From IMG/VR virus record IMGVR_UViG_3300025877_000002: a stretch of 64,000 nt of DNA, one strand, 5' to 3'. A program made the position numbers and the translations under genes. The stretch is from an uncultured virus (IMG/VR IMGVR_UViG_3300025877_000002) (taxonomy: Duplodnaviria; Heunggongvirae; Uroviricota; Caudoviricetes). Under the pieces are notes generated by a model that saw only the letters and a list, made by a program, of their open reading frames with translations, ran no database searches and was not told the DNA's origin. This document shows, one piece after another, positions 3,193 through 58,879 of the stretch. Every line of letters starts with the position of its first letter. Position 1 is the stretch's first letter.

Positions 3193-4134
3193 TTAAAAAT
3201 ATTTTTTATCGGTTCTCTGGCTTAGTGAGAAATCGAGATTTTTGCGTGACGGAGTGATGTTTTGTATTTGAGCATAATTAATTGCCCTTTGTATAATTGC
3301 CCTATATAAGGGCCAAAATTTTAATCCATCTATACAGTGCCTTTCGTTTTTATCGATGAAGTTGAGGACCAGTTCTCCATACTCTTCAGCTAACCTTAAT
3401 TCCGGGAATAGGTATAAACTTGCCTTACTTAATTCCTCCACATTCTCCTTACTTGCACATATCCTGATAACCTCTGTTTTCCTTACGCCCTTGCTATTCA
3501 TTACTGATATAAGGCTTAAGTAGGCTTCGTTTATCTCATGTCTAGTGGTGTGAGTAAAGCGTTTTTTGATAATCTTATAAGCTAATCTTGGTAAGCTAGT
3601 TCCTATCTTTAAATGTTTTTTGAGTTTGTTCTTATCCCGTCGTTTAAAGGCTGAGGGTTCTTGCAATGGCCTTGGTATTATCCTGAAATTGTTCCATCGG
3701 TCAAATTCCATTATTAGATTATAAAAATCCCTTTCCGGGATCTTAATAGAGTTTTTCCATGGAGTGATTTCAGATATTAGCAAATTATCCCTTGAAGAGA
3801 TGTGCCTATATAAAGGGTTATCAATTTCCTGCACTGCTTTACTTACCGACATCCTTTTGATAATGGTAAGTTCAAAATATTCCTTAAGGTCAGCTGATAT
3901 CCTTATTCCCTTTGGGATTAATTCCCCGTACTCATCGAAATGGTATTGGAATATTTTTAGGAATTTCTTTGCTCTGTCCTTTATCTCGATAAGTTTGTAA
4001 TGGGATTTTTTCATGATCTCCCCTGATTTCCAGGTAGACTTCTTTAAACCCAAATTTAACCGTAATGAGAGCTGCTCATCCTCGGTTAGGATCATCCAAG
4101 CTTTATTGTCCTTGTTTAAGTTTATATTCCTCAT
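3193..4134 (-). CDS. Putative transcription regulator with an N-terminal sigma-70 region-4-like HTH
   Basis: LTEDEQLSLRLNLGLKKSTWKSGEIMKKSHYKLIEIKDRAKKFLK resembles the sigma r4 pattern; coupled to the nusG-like gene. Confidence 0.45.
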   Translation of the reverse strand: MRNINLNKDNKAWMILTEDEQLSLRLNLGLKKSTWKSGEIMKKSHYKLIEIKDRAKKFLKIFQYHFDEYGELIPKGIRISADLKEYFELTIIKRMSVSKAVQEIDNPLYRHISSRDNLLISEITPWKNSIKIPERDFYNLIMEFDRWNNFRIIPRPLQEPSAFKRRDKNKLKKHLKIGTSLPRLAYKIIKKRFTHTTRHEINEAYLSLISVMNSKGVRKTEVIRICASKENVEELSKASLYLFPELRLAEEYGELVLNFIDKNERHCIDGLKFWPLYRAIIQRAINYAQIQNITPSRKNLDFSLSQRTDKKYF

Positions 4135-4868
4135 ATCTCTATTTCGGGTTGAGAATTATCAACTATTTTCCTTCCTTTAAATTTCAATTCCTCAATACTC
4201 TTTTCTCGAATCGGCTCTATCCTATGGTCACCCCGATAAATTGAGTAAAACACATTATGAAATGATACAGTTGCTTCCTTAGTGTAGGATTCAATGATCA
4301 GCTCTACCTTCACTTCCTGTTTCTTGTGGTCTATGGAAATTATCTTAGCTTCCATGTCCTGCCAAGGGTAACCCATAAGAGTTATGTGGCATCCAGCTTG
4401 CAGGTTATGAAGATCGGAGCAATCGTATATTATTGTCTTACTTGCTTCTATTTCCAACCTCTTTATCTCCTCTTCCGATGCAATGGCTATCTTCACATAC
4501 TGCTTAGGTCTTTCGGCCTCTTCCTCAGGGTCTTTTAGTTTAAAACGATGTCTCAGTATCCTTGATGCTGAGTTATCTTTTACCCATTGATATATTACTG
4601 GTAACCTATCACGAAGGGTAGTAAAAAATTCGGGGTTCCTTAGGTAGGTAATGGGTACTCTAAAGAATCCGTAGTTAAACAGCAAGGGTACATTCTGAAA
4701 TTCGTTTTTCTGTTTAAAGGTTTTCTTTAGGATCTTTACAGTCGGAATGTATGCCTTGATGTTATCGTAGTCTTCATATTTATCAAGTTGTTCCTGTACC
4801 TTGTCAACTTGATCGCTATCTATATAGGCAACTACCCAGATATGCTCTATTTCTTTTTTCTTGGCCAT
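4131..4868 (-). CDS. nusG: NusG/UpxY-family transcription antitermination factor
   Basis: NGN-like N-terminus (WVVAY...AYIPT...PLLFNYGFFRV) and KOW-like C-terminus (GCHITLMGYPWQDMEAKIISID...VKVEL). Confidence 0.8.
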   Translation of the reverse strand: MAKKKEIEHIWVVAYIDSDQVDKVQEQLDKYEDYDNIKAYIPTVKILKKTFKQKNEFQNVPLLFNYGFFRVPITYLRNPEFFTTLRDRLPVIYQWVKDNSASRILRHRFKLKDPEEEAERPKQYVKIAIASEEEIKRLEIEASKTIIYDCSDLHNLQAGCHITLMGYPWQDMEAKIISIDHKKQEVKVELIIESYTKEATVSFHNVFYSIYRGDHRIEPIREKSIEELKFKGRKIVDNSQPEIEI

Positions 4869-12847: not shown

Positions 12848-13426
12848 CTATTTAGTATTCAAGTATTGAAATACTATTCTCTTCCTTTCATCTAAATCAT
12901 AGGTCTCTATCAATAAAGGAGTTAGGTAATTCATAGCTTGATCCATACGATATTCCTCAGCTGCATACTTCATCATCTCCCAAGTCATTTTCTGATATTG
13001 CAGATTTTGAATTCTTACTCCATCCTCTTCAGGGTTTGTGTAAAGAGGGGGTATCATGATCAGGTGGGTGCATCGGTGACATACAGCCAAAGTTTTAGAG
13101 ATGAAGGCTACAGTTTCTTGTTCGGTGTTAAAAGCTGAATTTTGAAGTAAAAAGTAGGCAATACTATCCACAAATGAACGATCCATTACGTATGAATCTC
13201 CCATGGATAGTTGGGACCTCTGAGCTAGAAGCTCATACTGGTACATGTTACCTTTCACAATGTCGGCGGCAGTCATTTTAATGATGTCGCTATGGCTTTC
13301 GCATCCATATAATTTTCTAAGCCCTGGTCCATCTGTATGGATATAGGGTATACCAAATTGTTCGGCTATAAATTTGGCTAATGTTGTTTTACCGGCTCCA
13401 CTCGGGCCGCAAATTTGTATTTTCAT
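12848..13426 (-). CDS. P-loop (deoxy)nucleoside monophosphate kinase
   Basis: GPSGAGKTT Walker A, DRSFVD, EDGVR lid. Confidence 0.8.
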   Translation of the reverse strand: MKIQICGPSGAGKTTLAKFIAEQFGIPYIHTDGPGLRKLYGCESHSDIIKMTAADIVKGNMYQYELLAQRSQLSMGDSYVMDRSFVDSIAYFLLQNSAFNTEQETVAFISKTLAVCHRCTHLIMIPPLYTNPEEDGVRIQNLQYQKMTWEMMKYAAEEYRMDQAMNYLTPLLIETYDLDERKRIVFQYLNTK

Positions 13427-13593
13427 AGTTCGTCTTTTAAAATTGCGTAGTTTTCTTTAATATAGGCTTTTAATAGAGGATCACTAAGTCCGTTAGCCCA
13501 AAGGTAAAGTAGATAATCAGCGGGTACATTTGCTAATTTTGTTCCTTTATGCTTACCAAAAGGCATGGGAGTATTATCATCGTATTTTTTCAT
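13423..13593 (-). CDS. Small DUF3820-like (MPFGKHKG) protein
   Basis: MPFGKHKG...VPADYLLYL motif; ATG at 13593 overlaps the polymerase stop (ATGA). Confidence 0.75.
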   Translation of the reverse strand: MKKYDDNTPMPFGKHKGTKLANVPADYLLYLWANGLSDPLLKAYIKENYAILKDEL

Positions 13594-15737
13594 CGGTTTA
13601 GTAGTTTTGTGTAATCTTCTTCTGGATGGTAGCCCCGAAGTTGTCCCCAGTTCCAAGAGGCTTCGGCATTTACCTGCATTTTAACTTTTTTCATCTCAAA
13701 TCCGAAATATTTCATTGTACTCGGGTTTGCACATATCTCAACTAACTTTGGGACTAATTCATGTATGTATTCTGGATATATATAGAATCCAATTGAATCA
13801 TGGACATTGTATACTTCTTGTACTATCCCCCTTAGATTCCCCCTCTTTCTTTCCTGCCTAACAATTACAGAACTAAATGTCCCGAATTGAGCAGCACTAC
13901 CCTGCACTGGAGCATTGGTGGATTGCCGTTGAGCCTGAAGCATAAGGGAGAAGTTGTGGCTATCGATATTTGGTAGCCTTCGTTTCTGCCCAAACATGGT
14001 TGTAACAAATCCCTGTTTCTTTACCAACTTATGTTGGCTATCCATGAATTTTTTGATTCTCGGGAAATCTTTAAACCAATCTTTCATGTATTGTTCTGCT
14101 TCGGCTACGCTAACGACCTCCCCGTCCTTCTCTAGTGTCTCCTTTAACATCTTGGGTGATTGTTCATACAAGATACCAAAGTTGATAGTCTTAGCTCGCT
14201 TTTTACGCTTAGTCCAGTACACGTGATCCGGGTGATCCTCATCCTTGGTTATCTTAAGAATCTCATCGTAACGATCTTCAACTTTATTGGCTCTGCAAGC
14301 TGAGGCAACGTGAACATTCCTTCCGATTCTAAACCATTCGATCATGGTTTTTTCATTAGCCCATTCTGCAACTATCCTAAGCTCGGCTTGGGAATAATCG
14401 ATCTCTAAGAGTATAGTTCCCGGTGGAGCAATGAACATCCGTTTAATATCGGATGAGGTAGTATCTCGGGGAACGTTTTGAAGATTGGGTTCAACGCAAG
14501 AAAGTCGACCTGTAACAGTACCATGCAATTTAAAGCTCGGGTGTACCCTGTTTTGGTCATCAAGTATCTCATAGATTCCCTTGATATATGTTGAGTATAG
14601 TTTTTGCAGTCCCCGTAACTCTAGCAGAGCATCAATGAACCCGTGCTTATCTCTTTTTTTCAGTTTGAGTAAAGTTTCTTCGGCAGTACTTGGGTTATCG
14701 GTTGGTTTCTTATCCTTAAGTGTGTAATCTAAGATTGGGAATCTGAAGCCCCGTTTACTTCGGTATAAGAGATTGATAAGTTGGGGAGGGGAGCCAAGAT
14801 TAAGACCTGTATAAGTTTCCTTAGCCGAGGTATTACCCATGATGATCCGATCTATTTTATCCTCTCGGTTCTTTTTGAGTTTTGCATAGTTTTTAGCATC
14901 CTCATCTAGGTCATCGATCTCATCTTGGATTTTGGCAATTATCTTTTTAATAAAATCCTTTTTAGCCCTCTTTTCGAAACGTTTTATAATGGGCAAGGAC
15001 ATTACCTGATTCTGTTTATCGGCTATCTTCTTTTCATACTCCTGTATGAGGTTAGTAAGATAGGGTTTATCGATTAAAGCTCCTTCATATTCGCATTCTG
15101 CTAAGCCCCTTGATCTAGGCATATACATATTACGATACAGGGAATAGAATCCGTTTTTAATTAACTTCTGCTCTAACCAGATATAAGCCTCGAATTCAAG
15201 GGTACAATCTAAAGCACAATATTTAGCAAGGGGTTCTATCGGGACATTACCCCAGCCACCATGTTTCTTTACTAATGAGTGGATCTCATCTTCATAGCCG
15301 AAATATTTCGGTATATAGTTTCCCACAAAGGATTTAAGGTCATTGGGTCGTTCTTCATCAAGTAAATATTTGGCGAGCATCCCATCGAAGAAGCGACCAA
15401 TAATTTTACAGCCATAACGAAATAACCATTTCTCCTCGAATTTACCGTTCCAAGCAATTTTTGTAATAGCCGGGTCCTCAAGTACCATTCGAGAGAACCT
15501 ACGTAACCGTTTTTCCCAATTACCCTTCCATGGTGAATCCTTATGACCGAGGGGAATAATCCAGGCTGACCCAATTTGGAATGACACTCCGAGTATTGTT
15601 GGATACTTTTCTGGATCATGAAATTCGAGTCCATTAGTTTCGAAGTCAATACAGGCATACCCGGTTTGCTTGCAGTGGGCGATGAGTTGATCGAGTTCTG
15701 CATCAGATGAAATTAATTTGAACGGTACGCCCTTCAT
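13590..15737 (-). CDS. Family A DNA polymerase with 3'-5' exonuclease
   Basis: DFET (ExoI), NGKFE (ExoII), YCALD (ExoIII), TVTGRLS..PNLQN, DYSQAELR (A), KTINFGILY (B), VHDS (C). Confidence 0.96.
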   Translation of the reverse strand: MKGVPFKLISSDAELDQLIAHCKQTGYACIDFETNGLEFHDPEKYPTILGVSFQIGSAWIIPLGHKDSPWKGNWEKRLRRFSRMVLEDPAITKIAWNGKFEEKWLFRYGCKIIGRFFDGMLAKYLLDEERPNDLKSFVGNYIPKYFGYEDEIHSLVKKHGGWGNVPIEPLAKYCALDCTLEFEAYIWLEQKLIKNGFYSLYRNMYMPRSRGLAECEYEGALIDKPYLTNLIQEYEKKIADKQNQVMSLPIIKRFEKRAKKDFIKKIIAKIQDEIDDLDEDAKNYAKLKKNREDKIDRIIMGNTSAKETYTGLNLGSPPQLINLLYRSKRGFRFPILDYTLKDKKPTDNPSTAEETLLKLKKRDKHGFIDALLELRGLQKLYSTYIKGIYEILDDQNRVHPSFKLHGTVTGRLSCVEPNLQNVPRDTTSSDIKRMFIAPPGTILLEIDYSQAELRIVAEWANEKTMIEWFRIGRNVHVASACRANKVEDRYDEILKITKDEDHPDHVYWTKRKKRAKTINFGILYEQSPKMLKETLEKDGEVVSVAEAEQYMKDWFKDFPRIKKFMDSQHKLVKKQGFVTTMFGQKRRLPNIDSHNFSLMLQAQRQSTNAPVQGSAAQFGTFSSVIVRQERKRGNLRGIVQEVYNVHDSIGFYIYPEYIHELVPKLVEICANPSTMKYFGFEMKKVKMQVNAEASWNWGQLRGYHPEEDYTKLLNR

Positions 15738-16155
15738 ATTTTCTTATGTATATATCCTTAAAATCTAATACTTTAGAATCCATTTCCCTGTAAGTGTCTC
15801 GGTAACAGATAGCCCCTACTCCAGCTTGTACGATCAGCTCTTGGCACTTTCTACAGGGGAAGTGTGTAATGAAAAGAGTGGAACCCTCTAATGAGATCCC
15901 ACTCCTTGCAGCAAAGGCAATTAGGTTAGCCTCTGCATGTATTGCCTCAATGCAGGTTTTATCTAGAGGGCAAGAGCATTTACCATCTCCTCTTACTAGG
16001 AGAGGACCGTTATACCCCGTAGCTATTATCCTGTTATCTCTTACAGCTACTGCCCCAACATTTAACCTTCCACATGTATTGCGGAGGGAAAATACTTCGG
16101 CAGTAGCCATATAAACTTCATCCCTATCTGGACGTATCCTTTTCTGATCTGACAT
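15703..16155 (-). CDS. dCMP deaminase family protein
   Basis: IATGYNG, HAEAN, PCRKC zinc motifs. Confidence 0.92.
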   Translation of the reverse strand: MSDQKRIRPDRDEVYMATAEVFSLRNTCGRLNVGAVAVRDNRIIATGYNGPLLVRGDGKCSCPLDKTCIEAIHAEANLIAFAARSGISLEGSTLFITHFPCRKCQELIVQAGVGAICYRDTYREMDSKVLDFKDIYIRKYEGRTVQINFI

Positions 16156-16858
16156 CTTCTATACATTTTTTAAGCAATGGCCAATCCCTTTTATAGGAGT
16201 GAAGAGAAGTAATGTTATGGTAAAGCATACCCACTTTCATGTTTGTGCATCTTGCCACGTATTCTAATAACTTCCAAGCTAAGGCAACATCTACCCCAAA
16301 GTGGGTCATTACATCGCAACTCCTCATGTAATAAATTAAGTTTAGTTTCCCATTACGATGAACGAATTGGTAAGAGATAGAACAAGGTACTCTTTTTTTC
16401 CCACCCATTACCGCATTATCTAAATGCTGATCCCAAATCATAATCATACACTGCCTTGAATCGGGGTGTTTCACTAATTCTTTTAGGACATTATCAATCT
16501 GGGCAAATATCCTTTCTGAGTAGGTGTAATCAAATTTTGCCAGCCCATTTAAGAATTGATCCCATACATCATGTCTCTCTAGGAAAGAATGGCCGGGGTT
16601 AAGAGGTCTTCTAGATGTTCGATCCAGAATTTCGGCATTAACATAGGCTTTCATCCGGGGATCAGCAAGATAAAGGTAATCTTCTTTATCCAAAGATTCC
16701 AGGGCATAGGAGTAGTTTAGTATCTCCCGAGTCATCATTTCTGGATCATCCTTGATGACTTTGTTTTGGTAGGTATCAGTGTGAACCTCAGTTCCCATCT
16801 CCCAACAATCCCGATGTATTTCGCTAATCAGTTCGTAGCAATTTTTGTAGATTCTCAT
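16124..16858 (-). CDS. Thymidylate-synthase-fold enzyme, predicted dCMP (hydroxy)methyltransferase
   Basis: DSRQ, catalytic PC (Cys159), RSCD, SLHSY; Asp190 at the position of ThyA Asn177 / T4 gp42 Asp179. Confidence 0.8.
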   Translation of the reverse strand: MRIYKNCYELISEIHRDCWEMGTEVHTDTYQNKVIKDDPEMMTREILNYSYALESLDKEDYLYLADPRMKAYVNAEILDRTSRRPLNPGHSFLERHDVWDQFLNGLAKFDYTYSERIFAQIDNVLKELVKHPDSRQCMIMIWDQHLDNAVMGGKKRVPCSISYQFVHRNGKLNLIYYMRSCDVMTHFGVDVALAWKLLEYVARCTNMKVGMLYHNITSLHSYKRDWPLLKKCIEDVRSEKDTSR

Positions 16859-16891: not shown

Positions 16892-17761
16892 TTATAATCC
16901 GTTTTGTTGTTGACGGTATATCTTTCTTTGCCGACTAGTTACCACATGTTCTGGGTAAAGGGGGACTAGCATAAGCTTAAGGTTCCCGGCAAGTAAGGGC
17001 TTAGTTCTGGATAAAGCTTCTCCATCGGCATGAGTCTGAAGTTGGAGTACTGCCCGCCTGTTGGATTTATATTTAATCTCTAGGGGGTCAACTGTTTTGT
17101 ATCGGTTAAGAGTTTTTAAGATCCGTTCTTGAAAAGGGCCCTGTGGATGAACTGAAGCCATGAGCTTATCAATAGGTTTGTAAGTGTCATACATACTGAA
17201 GGTTTCAGCTGTGATGTAGGAATAGGGGGCAAAGAAATTAATACTAAAATGACTGCCGTCACCGTAGACATACTCGCCAATTCTGTGCACAAGTAGGAGA
17301 TCGATGAGAAACCTTTTAGTGAGTTCTGTGGCTCTGGTATGGAAATTAAGTACAGGCCAATCAGAACCTGGCCTACGGCTAAATACGATAGAAATAAGGC
17401 AATCTTTTCCATTTGTATGTGAGTTTGCAAAGTGATAACTTAAACTGTAGTTCTTTGACTTTTTGGACTCTCTAGTTTTAATGTCCGCAGCAATCAAATC
17501 TAAGTAATTCATATCAACATAATTACGCACTAGAGAAGTCCATTTTTGAATCTTGTAACCGAACATTCGGCCAAAGTCAAATTCAGGGTCTACCCAGCTC
17601 TTTCGGATATGAACGAAGGTGTCATTCATAATCATTTGAGTCCCGAATTTATTAATGCCCTGTTTCTTGGCAAGGAATAATTCATTCTGGGCTATGAACT
17701 TATTTAAACCCGACCAAGCTGATTGGGAAGTTTTAAACTCGAATTCGTTTATTTTCTCCAT
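16892..17761 (-). CDS. Divergent thymidylate-synthase-fold paralogue
   Basis: KDCLISIVFSR (Cys121) and RATELTKRFLID (Asp154) align with the TS PC...RSxD...N/D segment; HxY motif absent. Confidence 0.6.
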   Translation of the reverse strand: MEKINEFEFKTSQSAWSGLNKFIAQNELFLAKKQGINKFGTQMIMNDTFVHIRKSWVDPEFDFGRMFGYKIQKWTSLVRNYVDMNYLDLIAADIKTRESKKSKNYSLSYHFANSHTNGKDCLISIVFSRRPGSDWPVLNFHTRATELTKRFLIDLLLVHRIGEYVYGDGSHFSINFFAPYSYITAETFSMYDTYKPIDKLMASVHPQGPFQERILKTLNRYKTVDPLEIKYKSNRRAVLQLQTHADGEALSRTKPLLAGNLKLMLVPLYPEHVVTSRQRKIYRQQQNGL

Positions 17762-18591
17762 TAGTATTTAGATTGGATTCGGAATGCGTTTACCTTGTTT
17801 TTCTTGAAGTAGATTAGGAATAGGGAATCAGGGGTCATGCCCAAGAAATCCATTAAGTTAAAGAATGCTAACCAAGCTTCCATAATCTCAACATGAAACC
17901 GAGTAGAGTCAGTTACCATGTGACTTTGTTTCCATGGCTTATTCTTTAGGAAGTTACGGGAAATATTTAAGTGATATACTACCTTCCACATCATAACTTC
18001 CATCTGCATGTGATAGTCCGGATCAATAACTCGGCCACCTCTTAGGAATTCATCCTTAACCTTATCATCGGGGATTACCTTAAATGAAGTTTCCCACAAT
18101 TTAGGAGTTAAGAACTTAAGAGCATTCACCTGCTTAGCAAAGGCCATAGCTGTTTTCAGTGGATCTTGCCCACCGTACCAAAACGCATCCTTCATTTTTG
18201 CCTTAGTCAGGAGTACATCATAGTAGCTAACCACATCATCATAATCTAGGTTTACATAGATCATAGTTTCCAACAAGAAGTGAAGTGAATCACTTAATTC
18301 CTCGTTAAAATTTTGCAAGTGAGATTCTATGCCGTCCAACTCATTCTTGTTCAACATCTCAATCATCATCAGGTGAGATTCCATAGCTTCTGCTAATTCC
18401 TCTACCACCCTTCCAATAAAATCCTTAATTAGTAATTGATCGGGCTTTGAATTCATAGAGATAGGATACATAGGTATCTTCTCTATTTTTACATAGTCAT
18501 TGATCAACTCCTTTTGAAGGTCGAACATTCTCTTCAACCCAGATCCATCCTCGATCATTGGGGGCCTTTCAGTAATATCTCTGATATCCAT
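17761..18591 (-). CDS. All-alpha (dimeric dUTPase / T4 gp56-like) dCTP/dUTP pyrophosphatase
   Basis: EELAEA, EELSDSLHF, KNKPWK, YFKKNKVNAFR motifs. Confidence 0.75.
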   Translation of the reverse strand: MDIRDITERPPMIEDGSGLKRMFDLQKELINDYVKIEKIPMYPISMNSKPDQLLIKDFIGRVVEELAEAMESHLMMIEMLNKNELDGIESHLQNFNEELSDSLHFLLETMIYVNLDYDDVVSYYDVLLTKAKMKDAFWYGGQDPLKTAMAFAKQVNALKFLTPKLWETSFKVIPDDKVKDEFLRGGRVIDPDYHMQMEVMMWKVVYHLNISRNFLKNKPWKQSHMVTDSTRFHVEIMEAWLAFFNLMDFLGMTPDSLFLIYFKKNKVNAFRIQSKY

Positions 18592-57446: not shown

Positions 57447-58469
57447 TTAAGGGGTTAATAATTGTTTCTTAATAGCTCTTTCCAGCTTTGTTTTAAACCA
57501 TAAAGCAATCTCGTAAGGAAAACACTTAGTGGCAGTGATGTTAGATTTAGTGATCCAAAAGTTAGCCCTATCCTCTTCGTACAGTAGTTTGAAAGAATCC
57601 GGTAAACCTTGGATTCTAGCACGCTGTCGGGGGGTTAAAACTTCCCCATTTGGGGCAAATTCCCGATTTCCTTTCCTTACTGTTAGGGGTGGGGAGTTCT
57701 TTAGATTCCGATACACTCCTGGAGCATATTTCATACGCTCTTTGTTGGCTGGAAACCTGCGTTGGGACTTTGGAAACGACAACCAAGCTTCCTTAATTTC
57801 TCCCAAAGTCATCTTTTTCCCGCCAAAGATTGCAATATTAGTATCTTTATGCAATCTAACGTGACATAAGGCAGAATCTGGGCTGCCAAGGGCAGAATCT
57901 AGTTCTTTAAATACTTTAAGTCTTATGTTTTCTTGCTTTGGTAACTTGAATATTGCTAGAATTTCTTTATTTAAGTCCTTTCTAACCCCAATTATCACCA
58001 AACGTTTACGTGACAACTGTGAATTACCCCACTTTGAGACTGAACCTTGGAATATTTTCAGATTGTAGCCCTTGAATGCTTCCTTCAAATCCTCCTTGCC
58101 ATAGGTTTTCAGCAAAGCAGGGAGATTTTCCATCAAAAATACCTTGGGTTGGAACTGTTGGATGGACTCAATGAACATGGTTAGGCTCTTATTGTCTTTT
58201 GGATCAGATAGTTTCTTACCCCGGGAATAAGCAAGGACTGAACTATGCCCACAATCGGGGTGACCAATGATTGCGGTCGGAGTATCTACCCATTCCACCT
58301 GTTTCAGGTTAACTAGTTTCAGCTGGTTGGGGAAATTAGCTGACCATTGGGTTTGGCCGGGAGTATTGAAAGCGGACCGGGGCTCAATATTGGTGATTAA
58401 CTGATCTTTAAAGGGATATAAGACTGCGCCATTACCCGCACAGACTCCAAGTATAGTATAATTCTCCAT
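57447..58469 (-). CDS. C5-cytosine DNA methyltransferase (divergent)
   Basis: Motif I VCAGNG, IV GHPDC, VI MENL, VIII QLSRKR, IX LTPRQRARIQGLPD; motif X altered (TKCFP). Confidence 0.85.
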   Translation of the reverse strand: MENYTILGVCAGNGAVLYPFKDQLITNIEPRSAFNTPGQTQWSANFPNQLKLVNLKQVEWVDTPTAIIGHPDCGHSSVLAYSRGKKLSDPKDNKSLTMFIESIQQFQPKVFLMENLPALLKTYGKEDLKEAFKGYNLKIFQGSVSKWGNSQLSRKRLVIIGVRKDLNKEILAIFKLPKQENIRLKVFKELDSALGSPDSALCHVRLHKDTNIAIFGGKKMTLGEIKEAWLSFPKSQRRFPANKERMKYAPGVYRNLKNSPPLTVRKGNREFAPNGEVLTPRQRARIQGLPDSFKLLYEEDRANFWITKSNITATKCFPYEIALWFKTKLERAIKKQLLTP

Positions 58470-58525: not shown

Positions 58526-58879
58526 ATGGGAAAACAAGCAGTAAACATTTACCAAGACATGGTAAGGAAATCCAAAGAAACTCTAATGAAGTCCCAAAGA
58601 CTTCCGGTAATGGGACCAGCACTAGCTCTTGCTGCCGAAGCTGGGGAGGTGGCTGGTAAGGTGTATAAGAATATGAGGGATGAGAAATCTGACTTCGGTA
58701 TGTTACAACAACCCCTGATGAAAGAACTGGGAGATTGCCTGTTTTACATTACATCCTGTGCTCAGGACTTGGGCTATGAACTTGAGGATGTGATCGACAT
58801 CAATTACGAGAAGGTAAAACTCAGAACAGAGACGGGAACCATATCCGGAGACGGAGACGACAGGGAGGTAAAATCATGA
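58526..58879 (+). CDS. MazG-like nucleotide pyrophosphohydrolase
   Basis: LAAEAGEVAGK...KELGDCLFY...N.EK...R....G.GDDR. Confidence 0.9.
   Translation: MGKQAVNIYQDMVRKSKETLMKSQRLPVMGPALALAAEAGEVAGKVYKNMRDEKSDFGMLQQPLMKELGDCLFYITSCAQDLGYELEDVIDINYEKVKLRTETGTISGDGDDREVKS

Follow-up and report, generated by a model that had tools for sequence, protein, structure and literature searches.

A diverged thymidylate-synthase-fold protein encoded beside an Asp177-type homologue in putative phage cytosine-replacement cassettes

Nearly every known pyrimidine modification in phages begins with a thymidylate synthase (TS)-fold enzyme, and one branch of the family was recently reported to have exchanged folate for flavin. 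In TS, the trans-arginines and the HxY motif grip the 5'-phosphomonoester and the free 3'-OH; the roles of R126, R127, R166, H207 and Y209 in ThyA are likewise taken here as general background, separate from the paper cited for residue numbering. The flavin-dependent dCMP hydroxylases, namely HY126 AfhB (PDB 9iqc/9iqu), RB69 gp48 and DLP3 gp80, show that a TS fold can abandon folate. According to PMC13326640, N177D directs the fold towards dCMP, L143D/E gives a hydroxymethylase and D169N a hydroxylase, and section 28 of that paper supplies the ThyA numbering W80, Y94, L143, C146, D169, G173 and N177. A functional metagenomic screen reported that a TS with Asp177, together with a deaminase, a PRA-PH protein and PolA, marks contigs with modified cytosine (bioRxiv 2024.12.05.627091; PMC8670742), and five of seven tested TS homologues made 5-methyl-dCMP (bioRxiv 2024.12.05.627091). 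The locus described here belongs by its gene set to this known kind of cytosine-replacement cassette and encodes, beside such a TS homologue (TS-A), a second protein, TS-B, whose family is a real, widespread and undescribed TS-fold subfamily.

The cassette and the fold of TS-B

The window, that is the whole stretch of 64,000 nucleotides analysed from an uncultured virus (IMG/VR IMGVR_UViG_3300025877_000002), is part of a tailed-phage genome with terminase, capsid and baseplate-like genes. It is related to DP SC_6_H4_2017, a phage of the human gut, to which a 5.9-kb packaging/capsid query is 67% identical in nucleotides over 13% of its length; the group containing both is presumably Flandersviridae, infecting Bacteroidota. 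The order on the minus strand is helicase, a 130-aa gene, pyrophosphatase, TS-B, TS-A, deaminase, PolA and kinase, with the following features:

17761..18591, minus strand: all-alpha NTP pyrophosphatase (dUTPase_2/PRA-PH-like); PF08761, E 6.2e-9; phrog_173
16892..17761, minus strand: TS-B, 289-aa diverged thymidylate-synthase-fold protein, pI 9.65
16124..16858, minus strand: TS-A, 244 aa, Asp177-type (dCMP-preferring) TS family, subtype I; PF00303, E 3.7e-19
15703..16155, minus strand: dCMP-deaminase-family protein; PF00383, E 3.1e-19
13590..15737, minus strand: family A DNA polymerase (PolA); PF00476, E 1.5e-78
12848..13426, minus strand: dNMP (thymidylate-kinase-like) kinase; phrog_2107, E 5.2e-13

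The start of TS-B overlaps the pyrophosphatase stop codon, TS-B lies directly upstream of TS-A, as first described, with a gap of 33 nt, and the deaminase ORF overlaps the end of TS-A. The all-alpha pyrophosphatase is proposed as a candidate dCTPase, its dCTP specificity being putative. The deaminase, which is 33% identical to that of phage Xp12 over 84 aa, is a candidate supplier of dT from methylated dC. Elsewhere in the window, a NusG-like protein (4131-4868, minus strand; PF02357 E 0.004, phrog antiterminator) is a possible phage transcription antiterminator.

TS-B has no match in Pfam, and among the phrogs it matches only phrog_34294 (E 1.3e-10), which has no assigned function; its BLASTP similarity to TS-A was not significant (E 0.018). 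The TS fold proposed in the first-pass annotation therefore needed testing, and it was borne out by a confident AlphaFold2 model built on a 138-sequence alignment (pLDDT 95.4, pTM 0.90), for which all the top structural matches are TS-family proteins. In Foldseek, all eight matches at E<=0.001 belong to the TS superfamily, the best being the dCMP hydroxylase AfhB (9iqu, E 8.9e-7). VIA-align against 48,161 PDB representatives gave seven chains with Z>=8, every one from the TS family; 9iqc led them (Z 13.4, rmsd 3.8, 181 residues aligned), and the next fold scored 4.2. The nearest solved folds are cytosine-nucleotide enzymes (AfhB, MilA and the T4 hydroxymethylase), and TS-B is distant from every solved TS (TM 0.41-0.53 in Foldseek; some 180 residues at an rmsd of about 4 A), the structural match barely covering residues past ~196. 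Structure rows of the ESM Atlas also name PF00303 (TM 0.51-0.52).

Profile comparisons pointed the same way. In hhalign, C121, R143, E146 and D154 of TS-B pair with C159, R179, D182 and D190 of TS-A (probability 68%, E 4.7e-5; 74% in a second comparison), and in a TS-B profile search of 2476 ORFs the next-best matches were TS-A proteins (E 6.8e-5). A sequence search of the PDB found no match with a close alignment of TS-B and AfhB as the sole match with a wide one (E 0.0086). The TS fold of TS-B is thus confirmed at the level of the model. Chance resemblance of motifs is ruled out by the fold and profile matches, and a split gene is ruled out by the fact that each of the two ORFs spans the whole fold.

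The motifs first reported for TS-B are present, with KDC at 119-121, RATE at 143-146 and Asp at 154, and HxY is indeed absent from the whole protein, TS-A having HSY at 220-222. Y81, C121, R143 and D154 are invariant in all 138 relatives (16-73% identity) and also in a 26-sequence set spanning 13-46% identity, which adds cultured-phage proteins at 13-20%. Near-invariant among the 138 are K73 (137), L77 (136), F111 (135), W74 and Y69 (134 each), E146 (132), N20 (128), R236 (126) and R150 (124); within the 26-sequence set, E146, K149 and R150 are missing in four actinophage proteins. C121, R143, E146, R150 and D154 align with ThyA C146, R166, D169, G173 and N177, equivalences that are alignment-derived rather than taken from superposed coordinates. 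W74 aligns with W99 of TS-A and so probably equals ThyA W80, and Y81 probably equals ThyA Y94.

The pockets around these residues differ from those of canonical ThyA. The His207 position is aromatic (Y/F/W) in 132 of the 138 sequences and the Tyr209 position is S/T/D/N, so that Y/F/W-x-S/T/D/N stands in place of HxY; Glu146 replaces Asp169, and Arg150 replaces Gly173, placing it by alignment near C5 on the residue list of PMC13326640. No conserved arginine occurs at the trans positions 99-105 (n=138), the folate-pocket glycine is gone, and the Leu143 position is Gly118 (102/138). Judged from these alignments, TS-B keeps a putative catalytic core within rebuilt binding pockets. The label "degenerate" given to it at first is misleading, since this core is invariant across the family, and "diverged" describes it better.

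TS-A looks complete on its own, as R135, C159, R179, S180, D182, D190 and H220 are found in all 120 relatives, and its closest folds are MilA and AfhB. It is nonetheless unusual in having Arg156 (120/120) at the Leu143 position and His186 (His in 111/120) at the Gly173 position. Since it carries Arg rather than the Asp/Glu of known hydroxymethylases at the former, its product is not predictable. Two subtypes (I and II) were distinguished, about 25-30% identical to each other. By the published rules, TS-A and TS-B would both favour cytosine nucleotides, and no known product matches either of them; the identity of either as canonical ThyA is ruled out by the invariant Asp at the Asn177 position (Asp190 and Asp154, respectively).

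Occurrence of the pair and gene neighbourhoods

A check of co-occurrence across phage genomes had been proposed for the pair, and the association proved very strong. With TS-B as query, an A-family gene lies downstream in 80 of 83 loci (the best 80 of at least 395 IMG/VR loci plus three GenBank records, including two copies of the window's own genes and many near-copies); two of the other three loci end at a contig edge, and L013 has no A within 2.3 kb downstream. With TS-A as query, B was found within 6 kb in 76 of 80 loci (the best 80 of at least 385). When TS-A was grouped at 80% identity, B was present in 67 of 71 groups, a set that mixes A-query and B-query loci. In L128, B is 2.7 kb away from A. 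The 170-aa ORF at 2559-3071 of L013, without a Pfam match, lies between TS-B and PolA in the usual place of TS-A, and L023 (6762-9289) has a long TS-B (442 aa) and a long TS-A (400 aa), the extra sequence being without a Pfam domain.

Among 335 TS-A tblastn matches, nine hand-picked records all have TS-B directly upstream or one small gene off (E 7e-24 to 1e-8), namely Serratia phage Serbin, Mycobacterium phage Muddy, Gordonia phage SketchMex, Streptomyces phage KimJongPhill, Brevundimonas phage Polewnik, Yersinia phage P744, Pseudomonas phage Lebethron, Curtobacterium phage Shrew and uncultured virus ctfzr933. Clostridium phages Clo-PEP-1 and CP3 likewise carry TS-B beside TS-A. In these records the kinase and pyrophosphatase come first, followed by B, A, in most cases the deaminase, and PolA. 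TS-B is conserved in many unrelated phages, namely gut myoviruses and phages whose recorded hosts span at least three phyla (Firmicutes, Proteobacteria and Actinobacteria). Of 103 records matched by a subtype II TS-A query, counted as TS-A matches rather than as pairs, 68 are Gordonia phages. Members of the TS-B family in Yersinia phage P744 and virus ctfzr933 are labelled "pyrimidine hmase synthase" in GenBank; phrog_34294 is the same family, these two labels are automatic, and most records say hypothetical.

Two TS-B genes occur in 11 of 80 loci, nine of them arranged B-B-A, one B-A-B and one with two B and an extra ThyA. The copies are 31-36% identical in five of six pairs compared and 14% in L126; C, R and D are kept in all of them, and of seven two-B loci inspected, five have Asp at position 146 of the upstream copy. 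TS-A stands alone in four of 80 loci. In two of these (L111 2482-4188; L130 1999-3738) an asparagine-synthetase-like amidotransferase lies beside the kinase, and both have a different polymerase and an N6/N4 methyltransferase, L111 also having a UDG-family gene. The amidotransferase is possibly a stand-in for the TS-B step, providing a different second step. In one locus, L002 (12155-13775, gut phage DP SC_6), an IspD-like cytidylyltransferase and a LicD-family transferase follow directly after TS-A and might attach a polyol phosphate either to the DNA or to some surface glycan.

Possible roles of TS-B

With moderate confidence, we propose that TS-B is a separate, putatively catalytic, folate-independent TS-fold enzyme, which carries out a second nucleotide-level step on modified dCMP in a cytosine-replacement pathway. 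The proposal rests on the fold, the invariant core, the cassette, the co-occurrence and the independence from the history of TS-A. In this pathway the pyrophosphatase would convert dCTP to dCMP, and TS-A, being of the Asp177 type, would place a one-carbon group on C5. TS-B would hold the cytosine product through Asp154 and Arg143 while Cys121 adds to C6; Tyr81 and Trp74, with Cys121, would activate C5 or its substituent, and the rebuilt pocket (Glu146, Lys149, Arg150 and Lys73) would hold a non-folate co-substrate. The kinase and PolA would then bring the product into DNA, with dT supplied by the deaminase or by an inserted ThyA/ThyX. A specific chemistry can be suggested only tentatively: 5-hydroxymethyl-dCMP could lose water to give an exocyclic methylene, which would be trapped either by a hydride, yielding 5-methyl-dCMP without a DHFR, or by a small amine or thiol. 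A search of the window and 178 other loci (partial genomes) with one query sequence found no DHFR like that of Xp12, so TS-A may hydroxymethylate. Against the separate enzyme it may be said that a host DHFR could serve a methylase, that a single TS makes 5-methyl-dCMP unaided in Xp12 and in the five homologues mentioned above (bioRxiv 2024.12.05.627091), and that a B:B dimer lacking trans-arginines would have a thin phosphate site.

The first-pass annotation left two readings, an enzyme with different chemistry or a non-catalytic partner in an asymmetric TS-A/TS-B heterodimer. Invariance of Y81, C121, R143 and D154 speaks for the former and against a non-catalytic partner. A heterodimer in which the Cys121 site of B is completed by Arg135 of A, as a composite enzyme or as two channelled steps, is considerably less probable than a separate enzyme. 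The two genes are adjacent in nearly all loci and often translationally coupled, B is basic where A is acidic (median pI 9.4 and 5.8, respectively), and B is without the conserved trans-arginine that is invariant in A. The histories of the two proteins argue the other way. TS-B is 71% identical between L019 and L037 and 51% between the window and L006, over TS-A proteins only 27% and 26% identical, which amounts to an exchange of A between subtypes under more similar B proteins; L006 and Serbin, conversely, share 12% in B and 45% in A. A quick tree built from 63 B proteins shows six changes of TS-A subtype, five of them forced by well-supported branches, and one change fewer may hold as the subtype of L009 was mislabelled by pattern. 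Among 44 large-phage loci, B distances follow those of PolA, helicase and two core genes (rho 0.53-0.58) and A distances those of the pyrophosphatase (rho 0.79), with a correlation between A and B of 0.23, or -0.02 to 0.16 as a partial correlation with another gene fixed; these rho values are descriptive, as locus pairs are not independent points. By these comparisons TS-A has been replaced several times while TS-B stayed constant.

Loci with two B and one A, the four A-only loci, L013 and L128 also weigh against the heterodimer, in which the complete site of A would moreover forfeit its own trans-arginine. None of 5366 candidate proteins of 553-2000 aa was an A-B fusion, which is weak evidence. 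Prediction of the TS-A and TS-B complex (120- and 138-row alignments) scored 0.00 in two runs in which the controls were not folded, and is given no weight on either side. An obligate interface could nevertheless survive swaps of A, and the heterodimer keeps its share of probability accordingly.

It is rather unlikely that TS-B acts past the monophosphate stage, on modified cytosine in dNTPs or DNA, although several features are in keeping with this. What B has lost is the grip on the phosphomonoester and 3'-OH, and what it has kept are the ring-activating residues. The protein is basic (pI 9.65, family median 9.4), its model carries an extra helical section at the C-terminus, where Y231, K232 and R236 are conserved, and it tracks the replication genes. 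An aromatic residue at the His207 position could still hold a 3'-OH, however, and any unswapped gene tracks the backbone; no DNA-binding fold was matched in the structural search, in which residues past 196 were barely covered. We know of no TS-fold enzyme acting on DNA. That TS-B is the first folate-free TS-fold enzyme on already modified cytosine in dNTPs or DNA, and the cassette base an undescribed one, is correspondingly doubtful; if it were so, an undescribed cytosine base would occur in an abundant gut phage group and in Muddy, Serbin and the Gordonia CT phages.

Whether nucleotide or DNA is the substrate of TS-B, cytosine is probably modified by TS-A, and restriction-site counts bear on whether the DNA contains modified cytosine. 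Observed over Markov-expected counts were compared between three cassette genomes (the window, DP SC_6 and Clo-PEP-1) and three controls (B124-14, the first 50 kb of crAss001, and phiCP39-O), the hosts of two not being established and Clo-PEP-1 and phiCP39-O sharing a host species. GGCC, which has no A or T, occurs 125/138, 83/87 and 78/75 times in the cassette genomes and 3/62, 0/25 and 1/14 times in the controls; for CTAG the values are 150/197, 142/192 and 218/210 against 0/87, 2/170 and 83/129. Pooled C-containing 6-mer palindromes stand at 0.87, 0.93 and 0.76 in the cassette genomes against 0.57, 0.59 and 0.66 in the controls, and AT-only ones show no difference (0.85-0.95). The lost avoidance of GGCC and CTAG agrees with modified cytosine in cassette phages, as far as site counts can tell. 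Avoidance persists in the window for CGCG (2/12), GCGC (6/18) and CCTAGG (2/10), GATC stands at 190/325 in DP SC_6, and strongly depleted 6-mers number 6/40 in Clo-PEP-1 against 8/32 in its control. CATATG (0/10 in the window), ATGCAT, GAATTC and TGATCA are also still avoided, which hints at a small or partial modification; according to PMC7653180, NdeI (CATATG) cuts even glucosylated T4 DNA, and commercial enzymes for the other three are blocked by 5hmC. CG dinucleotides are depleted in the window (observed/expected 0.62) and in related gut and environmental loci (0.21-0.62), but this is not specific, the control crAss001 being extreme as well (0.03).

These counts bear on the possibility, which we regard as improbable, that the cassette makes thymidylate alone, for example from dCMP through 5-methyl-dCMP to dTMP, leaving DNA unmodified and B an accessory or a Cys-dependent deaminase. 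The annotation of Gordonia phage Azira assigns four named genes to thymine synthesis (PMC10353413), and 33 of 40 subtype I loci have no deaminase nearby. A C5 cytosine DNA methyltransferase gene (window 57447-58469, minus strand; L177 4682-5677; PF00145 E 6e-18; catalytic motif P-D-C or P-S-C), also present in DP SC_6, implies free cytosines, which would be odd if every cytosine were replaced; it could account for one unavoided site. It adjoins a small ORF of the window (58526-58879, minus strand) that by eye resembles a MazG-type pyrophosphatase. The loss of GGCC and CTAG avoidance argues against thymidylate production alone, as does the association of Asp177 and the same gene set with modified genomes (bioRxiv 2024.12.05.627091; PMC8670742). 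Furthermore, three cassettes contain an inserted canonical ThyA (L153 3936-4913) or ThyX (L166 4176-4817; L090 1839-2495), between or before the TS-B genes, and 15 of 63 dereplicated loci have a trimeric dUTPase alongside the all-alpha enzyme, which suggests that dTMP is not the product of A and B and that dCTP is what the all-alpha enzyme removes. In the same 63 loci the deaminase accompanies subtype II (22/23, against 7/40 for subtype I) and the trimeric dUTPase subtype I (13/40, against 2/23), indicating two ways of supplying dT.

A pseudoenzyme, serving as non-catalytic scaffold or regulator, is very improbable despite the loss of HxY and trans-arginines, the low TM scores to solved TS and the four actinophage proteins without E146, K149 and R150, as a nucleophile, phosphate arginine and specificity aspartate kept in 138/138 sequences and in both duplicated B copies would be unexpected in one over such distance.

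Comparison with known systems

No description of the TS-A/TS-B pair was found in the literature searched, most subscription papers lying outside its reach. TS-B points to an undescribed step in the making of protected viral DNA, and its presence across at least three host phyla and gut myoviruses makes the question testable at once in cultured phages. If the proposal of a separate enzyme is true, about a hundred sequenced phages read as thymine-synthesising, including the therapy phage Muddy, would have modified cytosine in their DNA, with consequences for how well they resist restriction and CRISPR; a new type of covalent cytosine chemistry would also become accessible.

The cassette resembles that of the 5-methylcytosine phage Xp12, in which an Asp177 TS also adjoins an all-alpha pyrophosphatase and a PF00383 deaminase near PolA. 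Xp12 has one TS, a DHFR and no TS-B (no match below E 0.48 in six frames), whereas the loci here have two TS folds and no such DHFR, and the Xp12 enzyme has Asn at the Leu143 and Gly at the Gly173 position where TS-A has Arg and His.

With the T4 dCMP hydroxymethylase gp42 and the CMP hydroxymethylase MilA, the fold, Cys, Arg166 and Asp177 are held in common, and the pathway logic of dCTPase, TS homologue and kinase is T4-like. The acidic residue of the T4 type at the Leu143 position is missing (Arg in TS-A, Gly in TS-B), and no glycosyltransferase was found among the scanned window ORFs or recurring neighbours. To our knowledge T4 has no second Asp177 paralogue.

Among solved structures TS-B matches AfhB best (Z 13.4-13.7, rmsd 3.8-4.1, 181-183 residues aligned, 10-14% identity), and the two types share a short TS fold, Asp177 and the lack of Gly173. 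The hydroxylase signature given for the AfhB type in PMC13326640, D169N, is found in neither protein, the position being Glu146 in TS-B (132/138; Asp in second copies) and Asp182 in TS-A, and this identity is ruled out. AfhB-type enzymes, moreover, retain both the trans-arginine and the HxY histidine and function with no paralogue, unlike TS-B, which, invisible to Pfam and annotated as hypothetical, represents another and larger departure among TS-fold proteins.
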